DNA of 64,000 nucleotides from Escherichia coli (GTDB taxonomy: Bacteria; Pseudomonadota; Gammaproteobacteria; Enterobacterales; Enterobacteriaceae), in assembly GCF_050320075.1 (NCBI RefSeq), contig NZ_CP190018.1; one strand, given 5' to 3'. This document shows, in pieces, positions 40,848-60,250 of this stretch; the first letter of the stretch is position 1, and each line of letters starts with the position of its first letter. Both the position numbers and the translations under genes were made by a program. Under the pieces are notes generated by a model. The model was given only the letters and a program-made list of their open reading frames with translations. It made no database searches and was not told where the DNA came from.

Positions 40848-40924
40848 TGGCGTGGCATGCAGGATTCGAACCTGCGACCAACCGCTTAGAAGGCGGTTGC
40901 TCTGTCCAACTGAGCTAATGCCAC
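40848..40924 (-). tRNA. tRNA-Arg (anticodon UCU), phage-encoded
   Basis: Manual cloverleaf: acceptor GTGGCAT/ATGCCAC, D-arm GCTC/GAGC, anticodon stem ACCGC/GCGGT, loop CTTCTAA (UCU), T-arm GCAGG-TTCGAAT-CCTGC, discriminator G, CCA encoded; closely resembles host argU. Confidence 0.85.
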
Positions 40925-57092: not shown

Positions 57093-57464
57093 ATGAACAG
57101 AATTATATTAATGATTATTCTTATGCTTTTAGCTGTAAAATCTTTTGCAGATACTACCTCACCGTTAATGATTCAGCCTAAAAATGGGGAAACACTGGAG
57201 GACTCTAAAAAGCATACAATGGAATATTTTGGATGTATAAAAGGGCAGGCCGTAAAATACGCTAAGACAGGAGAAAGTGTTGATTCTATATCCAAAGCTT
57301 CGGTTGTGTCATGCGAGTCGTACATACAAAAGATTGCTGAATCAAATATATACTATTTAAATTCCTCTCAAGACGGTAAGCGGAAATTTATTGGAAGGCT
57401 TAAATCAGATGGTGAAAATTTAGCAACGAAATTTGCTATGGATGAAAAGCTAAAAAATAAATAG
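57093..57464 (+). CDS. secreted protein of unknown function (moron)
   Basis: 123-aa ORF with N-terminal signal peptide MNRIILMIILMLLAVKSFA; conspicuously AT-rich coding sequence. Confidence 0.5.
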   Translation: MNRIILMIILMLLAVKSFADTTSPLMIQPKNGETLEDSKKHTMEYFGCIKGQAVKYAKTGESVDSISKASVVSCESYIQKIAESNIYYLNSSQDGKRKFIGRLKSDGENLATKFAMDEKLKNK

Positions 57465-57471
57465 GTGACAC

Positions 57472-57768
57472 ATGCAAGCGATAGGATTCATTGTTTATAT
57501 CGTCGTTGGTCTTTTTCAGTTGGCAGCAATTATGGCTGGGCTTGAATCATGGTGGGGATTGCACTGGATAATTGCAGCCCCCATTGCTTTCATCGTGAGC
57601 TATATTCCATTTGTTGGAGCGATTGTTGGTATGGTTGGTGCTGTGGATGTATGGCGGTGGGAGTGGTGGCAGGCTGGCCTTCTCTTCTTTGGTGGGATCA
57701 TCTTTGCTATTGTCTGCGGTGGAATGTCATCATTTTTCGAACGGCTATCATTCAGAAAAGGAACGTGA
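57472..57768 (+). CDS. small inner-membrane protein (moron)
   Basis: 98-aa ORF with three hydrophobic helices; AGGTGA SD; stop codon inside a GTGACATGTCAC palindrome. Confidence 0.5.
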   Translation: MQAIGFIVYIVVGLFQLAAIMAGLESWWGLHWIIAAPIAFIVSYIPFVGAIVGMVGAVDVWRWEWWQAGLLFFGGIIFAIVCGGMSSFFERLSFRKGT

Positions 57769-57800
57769 CATGTCACAGGCCGCTTTCGCGGCCTTGTTTT

Positions 57801-57959
57801 TAACGAATGCCACCGCCACCCGGGCGGGAATCCGCAGAACGCCCACCGCAGCGGGAGCCGTCAGCGGCAGTATCGCTGTCGTGCTGACAACGACCGGCAA
57901 AGGCCTGAGTTGAAGCTACCAGAGACAACAAAACGAACAGTGCAGCAAATGCTTTTTTC
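57801..57959 (-). CDS. small secreted Cys-containing peptide (about 52 aa)
   Basis: Manual translation MKKAFAALFVLLSLVASTQAFAGRCQHDSDTAADGSRCGG...; signal peptide; terminator hairpin ggccgcgaaagcggcc right after the stop. Confidence 0.35.
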
Positions 57960-58030
57960 ATTGTGAAATTTCCATCTATAAGCCACCTCAATGTGGCGTC
58001 AATGAGTGTAGCACTGACTTTTGTTTCGTC

Positions 58031-58054
58031 CACAAAAAAGCCCGCAGCGCGGGC
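58031..58054 (-). terminator. intrinsic terminator after the DUF2335-like gene
   Basis: Hairpin gcccgcagcgcgggc followed on the minus strand by a U-run. Confidence 0.55.
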
Positions 58055-58603
58055 TTACTTTTCTTCAGGTTTGTTGTCTTCAGATTTCTTCTTGATGCTT
58101 GGTTTTTGTCTAAGAACGAAAATACCAGCCACTGCAACAACTGTACCGATCACTGTGCCAGCTAGAACTTCATGACCTGTTAAACCTAATAATGTTGCAC
58201 AAGCTACTGTAAAAATAGTTGCACTCAGGCCAAACCACTGCCCACGTTTATCTCTATTAATAGCCCCGTCAAGTGCCTTTTCCTCCATTTTCTGGCGGTG
58301 AGCAAACTCCTTCTCCGTCAGCTGGAAGATGCGTTCGGGGGCATCAGGTAAAATATCCTGATACCCGCGAAGCAGATAGGGGGGAGGAAGCGGACCCTGA
58401 AACGCATGGTGAGCGACAACTATCTCCTGAATTTCAGGGCGATCAAGAACTCTTGTGAAGGCATCTGGGTGTTGAATGATCTCGTTACTTAGCCCTTCCT
58501 CAACTTCCTCGAACTCAGTTTCTTCGTTATCACTTGGTTGCCCAATAGATTTTTGCATATTTGTCGAAGGACATTCCTTTAGCTTCTGGTTTTCCTCTTG
58601 CAT
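58055..58603 (-). CDS. membrane protein, DUF2335-like
   Basis: 182-aa protein: acidic N-terminus, PLPPPYLLRGY...ERIFQLTEKEFAHRQKMEEKALD...RGQWFG motif, two C-terminal transmembrane helices. Confidence 0.5.
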   Translation of the reverse strand: MQEENQKLKECPSTNMQKSIGQPSDNEETEFEEVEEGLSNEIIQHPDAFTRVLDRPEIQEIVVAHHAFQGPLPPPYLLRGYQDILPDAPERIFQLTEKEFAHRQKMEEKALDGAINRDKRGQWFGLSATIFTVACATLLGLTGHEVLAGTVIGTVVAVAGIFVLRQKPSIKKKSEDNKPEEK

Positions 58604-58871
58604 TTGAGTTTTTCCCTGTCACTATTGCCCATTTTCCGCCAGCAGGCGCTGCAATTTTTTTTCCGTTCTTTACTATATATTCAGCATAAACACGATTTTC
58701 TGACCGTCTGAGATCGTCTCCGACCATATTCATGTCTCTTGATATAACTTTGACGACAGAGTCTCGGTTTAAAGCCTTGGCATAGTTGGAGCCAGGAACG
58801 ATACCCAAAGGGGTGCCAGACTCTATAGCCAGCTCCTTGACATATCTTCTGCTCATATGAACCTCAACCAA
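58530..58871 (-). CDS. hypothetical protein; overlaps the start of the downstream DUF2335-like gene in another frame
   Basis: 113-aa ORF; real extent uncertain because of the 74-nt out-of-frame overlap. Confidence 0.35.
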   Translation of the reverse strand: MVEVHMSRRYVKELAIESGTPLGIVPGSNYAKALNRDSVVKVISRDMNMVGDDLRRSENRVYAEYIVKNGKKIAAPAGGKWAIVTGKNSNARGKPEAKGMSFDKYAKIYWATK

Positions 58872-58977
58872 TCGACTTTACCAATCGGGTAATTTTAAAC
58901 ATGAGTATAATGCTTTTAACTGCAACGAGTGTAAACAATTATTGATAATTGTAGGCACATCCCTGTGCCGCCGCCCG

Positions 58978-59664
58978 TCAGAAGAACCCTGCTTTGTCGT
59001 TGATGTACTCCGCGTGCGTCTGGATATCACGCAGGCATTTACTCACACCGACGATGTAGCAGAACATGGTGGTCAACTCCGCCGCCGCGCCCGATACGTC
59101 GTGCCCGTCGTCCTGTAACTGGTTCAGCAAATTCATCAGCAGTGAGTTCTCCGTCAGGCCGAGAACACCAGACGGCGAATGAATCAGGCTACGGTAGCCG
59201 GGCTTCAGTGGGGCGCTGTAGGTTTTGTTCTCTATCTTCATTGCCTGCATCACTGCTGATGCTGTGGCGTTGGCTACCTGGTCGGCAACCATCTTTATGC
59301 GTTCTTCCTGCGGGAGCGAGTTTTTAATGTAACTTCCGGTGCGGCGGATCTGAGGAAGAACCTCACCTGTAACCCATTTGCGAAAGCGGTAGGGGATAGT
59401 GCCTGGTGTTACTGCATCGCGGCAGCGGAGGATCAGTGTGTAGAGGCCTGACTCGTTGATAATATTGGTTTCGCCTTGACGGCCTAAGTTAAATTTAGCC
59501 CTTTCATCATCATCAAGAGATTTTATTGACATAGTGGGGTTTGTCAGTTGAAGAGCTTTAATAACGTCTTTGGCAACAAACCAAGGATTTCCATCAATAA
59601 CAATGGCTCGAATGGTTGCTTCTGATTCAAAATGAAAAACAGATGGGGTTACGTTAGCAGTCAT
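58978..59664 (-). CDS. antirepressor (Bro-N domain protein)
   Basis: ORF 58978-59817; start placed at the ATG giving MTANVTPSVFHFESEATIRAIVIDGNPWFVAKDVIKALQL... (Bro-N signature); AAGGTGA SD. Confidence 0.7.
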   Translation of the reverse strand: MTANVTPSVFHFESEATIRAIVIDGNPWFVAKDVIKALQLTNPTMSIKSLDDDERAKFNLGRQGETNIINESGLYTLILRCRDAVTPGTIPYRFRKWVTGEVLPQIRRTGSYIKNSLPQEERIKMVADQVANATASAVMQAMKIENKTYSAPLKPGYRSLIHSPSGVLGLTENSLLMNLLNQLQDDGHDVSGAAAELTTMFCYIVGVSKCLRDIQTHAEYINDKAGFF

Positions 59665-59977: not shown

Positions 59978-60250
59978 TTATCTGGTTTGTTTTCGTAATT
60001 GTTCGGCACAATAGTCGAGATGTGTTTGCAGATCCCGCATAGACATCTGTGAGCTGGTGACGTAGTTAATCAGTGCAGTCAGTTCGGCAAGTGGGCCATC
60101 GACATTAAATCCATCCTTATCGAGATCCCGGAGTAATTTCATCAAGTGCGATCCCTCCACCAGTGACCTGACGCCTCCCGGCGTGTGAATCCTTTCGGTA
60201 AATCCGTCTTCCAGTGGATAGTGATACTGCTGCATCTTAATCTTCTCCAT
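59978..60250 (-). CDS. small protein similar to the C-terminal region of the adjacent antirepressor
   Basis: 90-aa ORF; LMKLLRDLDKDGFNVDGPLAELTALINYV...RDLQTHLDY parallels LMNLLNQLQDDGHDVSGAAAELTTMFCYI...RDIQTHAEY in the Bro protein. Confidence 0.45.
   Translation of the reverse strand: MEKIKMQQYHYPLEDGFTERIHTPGGVRSLVEGSHLMKLLRDLDKDGFNVDGPLAELTALINYVTSSQMSMRDLQTHLDYCAEQLRKQTR

Follow-up and report, generated by a model that had tools for sequence, protein, structure and literature searches.

An overlapping gene pair in an Escherichia coli prophage joins a DUF2335 membrane protein to an uncurated partner family and may be a conflict system

Two small minus-strand genes overlap each other in a prophage carried by a 64,000-nucleotide (nt) stretch of Escherichia coli contig NZ_CP190018.1 (assembly GCF_050320075.1), hereafter called the window. 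The locus raises the question of whether these are two genes or a broken one, whether they form a unit, and what such a unit might do. An earlier note on this DNA had described a soluble protein of 113 amino acids (aa) and a DUF2335-like membrane protein, and proposed an exclusion or abortive-infection module. We find that the upstream gene (A) has counterparts next to DUF2335 genes in many bacterial phyla, that it and the downstream gene (B) travel as a mobile unit, and that a role in conflict with phages is a reasonable, still tentative, reading. The two genes and their overlap are as follows:

58530 to 58856, minus strand: gene A, 327 nt, 108 aa from the ATG at 58856 (open reading frame (ORF) list and annotation by the Prokaryotic Genome Annotation Pipeline, PGAP).
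58055 to 58603, minus strand: gene B, a DUF2335 inner-membrane protein of 182 aa (PF10097, phrog_3996, alignment and AlphaFold2).
58530 to 58603, minus strand: the 74 nt shared by A and B, B being read in the +1 frame with respect to A (coordinates and alignments).

The main evidence comes from DUF2335 loci gathered independently of A, using an alignment of B. At least 17 of the 21 loci obtained from representative genomes have an ORF of 56 to 100 aa directly upstream on the same strand, usually overlapping the DUF2335 start. These 21 loci include Bacteroidales, Dehalococcoidia, Deinococcales, Acidobacteriota, Phycisphaerales and Leptospiraceae, and also Lachnospiraceae, Chloroflexi, Nitrospirae, Ignavibacterium and Actinomycetota. 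The upstream ORFs carry two motifs, (P)SFLEGxARxLDxGxT in the N-terminal and DWxxVGxD(I/L/M)R in the C-terminal part, and the same kind of ORF was found at three further metagenomic DUF2335 loci. A hidden Markov model (HMM) of this partner family was then compared with 52 diverged viral-contig loci, whose DUF2335 proteins are 27 to 49% identical to B: it matched directly upstream in 47, and two of the five loci without a match end at the contig edge (47 of 50 testable). Streptococcus phage Javan433 and Arthrobacter phage Gusanita have the same small overlapping upstream gene in their GenBank annotation. Conversely, at every locus examined with an A homologue, a DUF2335 gene follows immediately downstream and overlaps it.

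Enterobacterial A (residues 12-59) was matched to the canonical partner family by hhalign with a probability of 91.3% and E=9.4e-7, and MAFFT aligns its motifs directly with those of the family, giving xFLxGxxSxLDxxP/G and D[WMF]xx[VI]GxD[ILM]R. On these sequence comparisons, A belongs, as a divergent member, to a family of small proteins whose genes precede those of DUF2335 proteins; the family is uncurated, with neither a Pfam nor an NCBIfam model, and no informative name in any source. Pairwise identities or distances of the partner and of B are correlated (r=0.47, a value that none of 2000 Mantel permutations reached). Of the two proteins, the partner evolves faster: A is ~50% identical where B is 78-81%, and 34% identical where B is 70%. 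Both genes and their pairing are real, far beyond chance, and we have very little doubt that A and B are a true co-functional module. What is new is that the partner family is recognised, and that the pair is seen to be a mobile unit; B itself is an ordinary DUF2335 member. The small protein, as a conserved partner of DUF2335 across bacterial phyla, had been passed over in the earlier note.

The length of A needed correction. Its longest form according to the ORF finder (58871 to 58530, minus strand, TTG start) encodes the 113 aa reported earlier; the ORF itself and its soluble character were borne out, and the length was not. The true start is almost certainly the ATG at 58856, giving a 108-aa product, because a GAGG lies 5 nt upstream of it, because the 108-position phrog_10654 profile aligns to residues 6-113 of the 113-aa ORF, because the coding sequence called by PGAP is 327 nt long, and because MSRRY opens all A homologues.

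58862 to 58865, minus strand: Shine-Dalgarno sequence GAGG of gene A, 5 nt before the ATG (read from the sequence).

From its computed composition protein A is basic (isoelectric point, pI, 10.0) and soluble. It is matched by phrog_10654 (E=1.1e-65, PHROG profile search), and no Pfam or NCBIfam model matched it. Residues ~8-60 are the conserved DUF2335-partner domain, with the motifs ESGTPLGIVPGSNY ... DMNMVGDDLRR, and residues 61-108 form a lineage-specific basic extension (pI 10.3) terminating in the FDKYAKIYWATK motif. Detectable relatives of A are few, and all are small proteins encoded upstream of DUF2335 genes. The idea that A might be a repeat protein was rejected: the long repeat proteins found by HMMER (P0039-P0048) match only short low-complexity stretches.

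Gene B was described correctly in the earlier note on each of three counts, namely a DUF2335-like membrane protein, an acidic N-terminus, and a PPPY...RGQWFG region with two transmembrane (TM) helices. Its main features are the following:

58238 to 58387, minus strand: DUF2335 Pfam domain, B residues 73-122, PPPYLLRGYQDILPDAPERIF...HRQKMEE...RDKRGQ (Pfam search).
58109 to 58237, minus strand: two predicted TM helices of B, residues ~123-143 and ~146-165, joined by a short LTGHE loop (hydropathy and AlphaFold2).

The Pfam model DUF2335 (PF10097) matches B over all of its positions (1-50 of 50) with E=1.6e-15 and 57.2 bits (cut-off 25); phrog_3996 ('membrane protein, moron') matches it with E=8e-60. 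As in other members of DUF2335 (PHROG 3996), the domain is followed by two TM helices. In order, the protein has an acidic N-terminus (residues 1-66, pI 4.4, disordered), a conserved helical region in the cytoplasm, the TM hairpin and a C-terminal tail that is basic. Both the GPLPPPY and RGQWFG motifs are present, and the residues invariant in the alignment are G70, P71, L72, P73, P75, Y81, H102, R120, Q122 and G125. Hydropathy peaks at residues 132/133 and 153-157, the second TM helix shows a small-xxx-small pattern, and by the positive-inside rule both termini are inferred to be cytoplasmic (N-in, C-in). Compared to the DUF2335 family at large, the enterobacterial subfamily adds the acidic N-terminal extension of B and the basic C-terminal extension of A. 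Enterobacterial B carries a conserved acidic segment, EFEEVEE...RVLDRPEIQ, and this segment and the basic tail of A look as if they had been co-acquired in the enterobacterial branch; the two extensions may interact.

Structures were predicted with AlphaFold2 (AF2) on linker-fused A-B pairs with paired alignments, the outputs being the predicted local distance difference test (pLDDT) and the predicted template modelling score (pTM), and no inter-chain contacts. One fusion was the E. coli pair, the other a compact viral-contig pair (L107). In both models B has a short helix after GPLPPP, then one long helix running from (D/E)RI...AE.E..HR into the first TM helix, then the second TM helix; helices 88-141 and 145-165 have a pLDDT of 75-91 in the E. 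coli fusion, and the corresponding values are 79-96 in the L107 fusion. The DWxxVGxD segment of the partner is helical in both (pLDDT 64-83). Profile searches for solved-structure relatives of both families gave nothing significant.

Where the pair sits is informative as to its mobility. Over 48.8 kb the window runs collinear with E. coli YZLc1-3, at 2 mismatches, and from ~26.3 kb onward it consists of a Uetakevirus (epsilon15/phiV10-like) prophage lying beside guaA, which is the integration site given for phage vB_EcoP_ZX5 (PMC9782041). The block that holds the pair is transcribed leftward and has the ejection-protein genes on one side and the tailspike gene on the other; the pair is beside a BRO-N antirepressor, and its description as a prophage moron slot was a correct reading of this anatomy. 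Homology with other E. coli prophages breaks at 58953/58952 and at ~58039-58066 (blastn). Given these sharp breakpoints against related prophages, the A-B pair is a replaceable cassette of 896 bp; its GC content is 43.4%, versus 50.2% for the prophage.

58057 to 58952, minus strand: replaceable cassette, 896 bp (blastn breakpoints against loci L064-L067 and phage TL-2011b).
58907 to 58935, minus strand: sigma-70 promoter-like site, TTTACA, 17 nt, CATTAT, within the cassette and upstream of gene A (consensus scan, 9/12, a match only).
58038 to 58056, minus strand: intrinsic-terminator-like hairpin and T-run, 8-bp stem with 6 GC pairs, directly after the B stop.

The hairpin is the terminator that the two genes had been said to have in common, and it is situated within the flank common to most alternative cassettes, or at its border. 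An Rfam scan returned only a sub-threshold Trp-leader match over this terminator, and gave no evidence for an RNA partner. With its own promoter-like site and terminator, its defined breakpoints and its low GC, the cassette is autonomous. The two genes are probably co-transcribed and translationally coupled.

Some part of a 1.2-kb query matches 498 of 5,426 complete E. coli genomes, and 67 carry this cassette. The slot is a hotspot for cassettes: at least six different fillings occur between flanks that are identical (loci L064-L067 and L002). Among the other fillings are a YafO-family toxin gene overlapped by an ORF of 108 or 59 aa, a DUF4760 protein, a pair of 55-aa and 147-aa ORFs, and a 210-aa protein; the alternative cassettes have no match among the defence models used throughout, those of PADLOC-DB v2.0.0. 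The YafO-family cassettes (phage TL-2011b, E. coli PCN033) resemble the A-B cassette most: they have the same flanks and strand, a similar size and a two-gene layout, in which a small upstream ORF overlaps a downstream ORF of ~170-180 aa by 14-26 nt. Their YafO Pfam match is below the gathering threshold. The proteins are unrelated, and B differs in being a membrane protein, whereas YafO toxins are soluble ribosome-dependent mRNA interferases.

We tentatively favour, as a possibility short of being probable, that the pair is a TA-like (toxin-antitoxin-like), abortive-infection or exclusion conflict system; to this extent the abortive-infection or exclusion reading of the earlier note was a reasonable one. 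This reading is suggested by the gene order together with the faster evolution of the upstream partner and the patchy cross-phylum distribution, by the variable insertion sites and the frequent carriage in accessory regions of temperate phages, and by the alternation of the slot with a YafO toxin cassette and the adjacency to Avs8A described below. In such a system, the pair would be expressed in the lysogen from its own promoter. A would be the cognate small cytoplasmic partner that binds the cytoplasmic part of B, and would control the activity of the TM hairpin, for example its oligomerisation or a permeabilisation of the membrane. The pair would then act in the lysogen as a TA-like, abortive-infection or superinfection-exclusion device.

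The phage-borne copies lie among variable accessory and regulatory genes. Neighbours on viral contigs include terminases, helix-turn-helix (HTH) and Arc regulators, integrases, holins, an Abi_2 protein and SocA-like antitoxins, and in Arthrobacter phage Gusanita the pair lies between two integrase genes. No conserved third gene was found in 93 genome neighbours or 126 phage neighbours. A full-length STAND gene, Avs8A/PD-lambda-4A (PADLOC E=0), immediately precedes the pair in an Enterobacter locus (L007 1-5841), and an IS3 element comes after the pair.

The position after Avs8A is occupied differently in E. coli 536 (L154 2579-7620), by an unrelated truncated 86-aa ORF and IS100, and the region downstream of Avs8A seems variable. 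We considered whether A or B could be Avs8B and rejected it: neither matches the PADLOC PD-Lambda-4 models, and E. coli 536 has the unrelated ORF there. Avs8B has been described as dispensable and without homologues (bioRxiv 10.1101/2025.07.02.662641).

Several known systems have a comparable architecture. The RexA/RexB pair of lambda is likewise a prophage-encoded combination of a soluble and an inner-membrane protein, apparently expressed apart from the lytic genes. This is an architectural analogy: RexA and RexB have no sequence or fold similarity with A and B, RexB has four TM helices and RexA is ~280 aa long. TA systems of the CptA(YgfX)/CptB(SdhE) type, with a membrane toxin, likewise have a small soluble gene upstream of a small two-TM gene. 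An antitoxin is expected to evolve faster than its toxin, and A likewise evolves faster than B. There is however no homology with the CptA/CptB type, and the A-B pair is without a DNA-binding antitoxin domain and rare on plasmids. The layout of the pair is that of type II TA systems, i.e. two small adjacent co-oriented genes with one promoter-like site and one terminator. Finally, the immI/sieA region of P22 has a similar position between ejection-protein genes and the tailspike gene, with antirepressor and small membrane-protein genes. The resemblance stops there, as there is no SieA homology, the block is leftward here, and the antirepressor is of the BRO-N type.

A number of results weigh against a conflict system. 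Housekeeping genes, with a few transposases, make up most of the pair's neighbours in non-phage genomes, and defence genes near the pair are not clearly enriched. The PADLOC models gave no meaningful match to A and B of either E. coli or Enterobacter: the best scores for A/B (E=0.039 and 0.0028) concern unrelated short stretches. No known toxin or antitoxin family model in Pfam, NCBIfam or PADLOC matched A or B, the only match being DUF2335, and protein A has no recognisable DNA-binding domain. The pair is present on 7 of 72,556 plasmid records; classical TA modules are expected to be commoner on plasmids. As for binding of A to B, the fused AF2 models reached a mean pLDDT of 59.8 and a pTM of 0.32 for the E. 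coli pair, and 71.7 and 0.54 for the L107 pair. A Foldseek search against the Protein Data Bank (PDB) returned nothing at E<=0.001.

The same arrangement recurs in Proteobacteria, Firmicutes, Actinobacteria, Bacteroidota, Chloroflexi, Spirochaetes and others. It is a more doubtful proposition that DUF2335 proteins and their small partners are, in general, widespread two-component membrane-acting conflict systems (anti-phage, exclusion or TA-like), largely carried as morons of temperate phages. If this were so, defence-island methods would have missed the pairs because they usually occur alone.

The alternative that survives best, which we nevertheless regard as unlikely, is a lysogenic-conversion or cell-physiology module without a role in phage conflict, the complex of B and A serving as a membrane-anchored scaffold, or as a stress or virulence factor altering the host envelope. 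The many non-phage DUF2335 pairs that lie among housekeeping genes, and the silence of the defence models, would fit it. So would the deletion of a DUF2335 gene in Dickeya zeae MS2, which lowered potato maceration (PMC8809351). Against it, the lysogen of vB_EcoP_ZX5, a phage that carries the cassette, was unchanged in growth, biofilm, stress response, antibiotic sensitivity, adherence and virulence (PMC9782041); the pair with both its genes is therefore not overtly toxic or host-altering. Moreover the patchy distribution, the variable insertion sites and the many phage-borne copies are a better fit to a selfish or conflict cassette, and the slot alternates with a toxin cassette.

A lysis-timing accessory, in which B would be holin-like or antiholin-like and A its regulator, the two modulating the lysis of the phage itself, is clearly less probable still. 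B does have two TM helices, an N-in/C-in topology and a charged C-terminal tail, as class II or pinholin-like holins might, and holin families are among the viral-contig neighbours. The pair of a Rahnella lambdoid prophage comes after the Q antiterminator and before the lysis genes, and in Streptococcus Javan prophages it comes directly after the holin and lysin genes, at the prophage end. In our prophage, however, the pair is on the strand opposite to the lysis genes, at ~5 kb from the holin and endolysin genes, and has a promoter-like site and a terminator to itself. The cassette is dispensable, since related prophages have unrelated ones instead, and the pair is also found at chromosomal sites without phage genes. 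B has no holin Pfam match, and its cytoplasmic N-terminal region of ~120 residues is atypical for the holin classes.

There remained the question of whether the overlap itself is genuine. The earlier note had reported an overlap of about 74 nt on the minus strand in different frames, which the coordinates confirm, and had wondered about a programmed frameshift or an artefact, an alternative that falls because many independent assemblies, and diverged homologues as well, keep the overlap. Identity over the 1.2-kb region is 99.5-100% in the 67 complete E. coli genomes, in the isolated phages EC.W1-9 and vB_EcoP_ZX5 (99.5% for the cassette of the latter) and in several IMG/VR contigs. Two ORFs are kept in the diverged homologues of Klebsiella, Enterobacter, Rahnella and uncultured samples, with overlaps of 77, 77, 32, 32 and 32 nt, and the overlapping pair is retained down to ~34% (A) and 64-70% (B) identity. 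In the wider family the genes occur in every relative frame, from a 27-nt gap through overlaps of 1-4 nt to overlaps of more than 100 nt. Since relative frame and overlap length vary across the family, a conserved programmed frameshift is excluded. Reading the sequence of 58530-58603 revealed neither a canonical slippery heptamer nor a stop-codon shift site.

The overlap encodes the conserved C-terminal motif of A in one frame and the variable N-terminus of B in the +1 frame. The A motif, F(D/E)KYAxLYWxTK, falls within the overlap and is conserved, and the first ~25 residues of B vary; it is for this reason that we ascribe the constraint on the overlap to the A frame. An alternative start of B is its second Met (58558), which was chosen by the depositors of EC.W1-9 and would reduce the overlap to 29 nt. 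In Klebsiella and Enterobacter, Thr replaces the Met16 of E. coli B, and A keeps a Tyr at the overlapping codon; a TAT to TAC change in A is inferred to underlie the Met16Thr difference in B. Because the upstream Met is kept in Klebsiella and Enterobacter, and Met16 is not, the upstream start at 58603 is favoured. Two homopolymer runs lie in the pair:

58655 to 58662, minus strand: A8 homopolymer in gene A, codons G-K-K; 2 nt shorter in some public assemblies.
58379 to 58384, minus strand: C6 homopolymer in gene B, PPP codons; 2 nt shorter in the same assemblies as A8.

That A and B are a single gene, split by a sequencing or assembly error or fused by programmed +1 frameshifting, can be set aside as extremely improbable: a 74-nt overlap is long for bacteria, both genes have homopolymer runs and one public 168-aa ORF (P0004) joins A and B, but the DNA agrees across the complete genomes and isolated phages, PGAP calls two coding sequences, diverged homologues have two ORFs with all relative frames in the wider family, and the overlap is without a canonical slippery or shift site. 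P0004 looks error-prone, because it comes from a 1.4-kb Logan contig and shows an in-frame codon loss. Like P0004, the truncated forms P0005 and P0006 stem from short public-run assemblies with homopolymer indels. In two aligned Logan contigs (L068 and L069) the A8 and C6 runs both fall 2 nt short, and both genes are frameshifted; the truncated A product found there is also encoded in a third public run (L070). These paired 2-nt contractions could be a sequencing artefact or paired inactivating alleles.

The searchable literature contained no functional study of DUF2335, of the PHROG ids or of these accessions. Two papers on type VI secretion (T6SS) effectors name a 'DUF2335 phospholipase' toxin domain. 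We rejected these effectors as relatives, the name being most likely a mislabel of DUF2235 (the Tle1 family); text-mining for 'DUF2335' may be misled by it. DUF2335 is a long-standing Pfam domain of unknown function, which is now linked to a conserved, uncurated partner. A hypothetical pair thereby becomes a defined and testable 0.9-kb cassette, for which the same slot with other cassettes provides natural isogenic comparators. If it is a defence, exclusion or addiction module, it would be a compact membrane-effector system common in prophages, and if the conflict reading is true, an example of a class that guilt-by-association searches tend to overlook. If the function is another one, the tight pairing is still a first functional handle on the DUF2335 family.

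Some observations concern the surroundings of the cassette and stray copies of its genes. The flanking features and one distant one in the window are:

57800 to 57961, minus strand: gene C, 53 aa, whose N-terminus resembles a signal peptide (…TQAFA|G) and which has a Gly-rich tail and two Cys.
57093 to 57464, plus strand: uncharacterised protein of 123 aa with a signal-peptide-like N-terminus, directly after the ejection-protein genes.
57472 to 57768, plus strand: uncharacterised, very hydrophobic protein of 98 aa, likewise after the ejection-protein genes, phrog_3075, with a weak sub-threshold holin-family match.
58978 to 59664, minus strand: BRO-N antirepressor, 228 aa according to PGAP versus 279 aa according to the ORF finder.
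59978 to 60250, minus strand: ORF of 85-90 aa upstream of the antirepressor.
40848 to 40924, minus strand: tRNA-Arg(tct) gene.

Gene C matches phrog_14503 ('membrane associated protein') and belongs to the conserved flank common to all alternative cassettes; in the lambdoid prophage of Rahnella it also comes after the A-B pair (L010 4614-4775). Outside of a prophage, beside a resolvase gene (L071 2501-2773), a remnant of gene A (the first ~63 codons, ~81% identity) occurs without B, and is fused to a sequence that matches an alternative frame across the gene C locus (57861-57986). The 85-90-aa ORF has phrog_450 and phrog_15539 in common with the C-terminal part of the antirepressor, which makes it a free-standing copy of the antirepressor C-terminal domain. 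The tRNA-Arg(tct) gene lies in the head-gene region of the prophage, between the terminase and portal genes.

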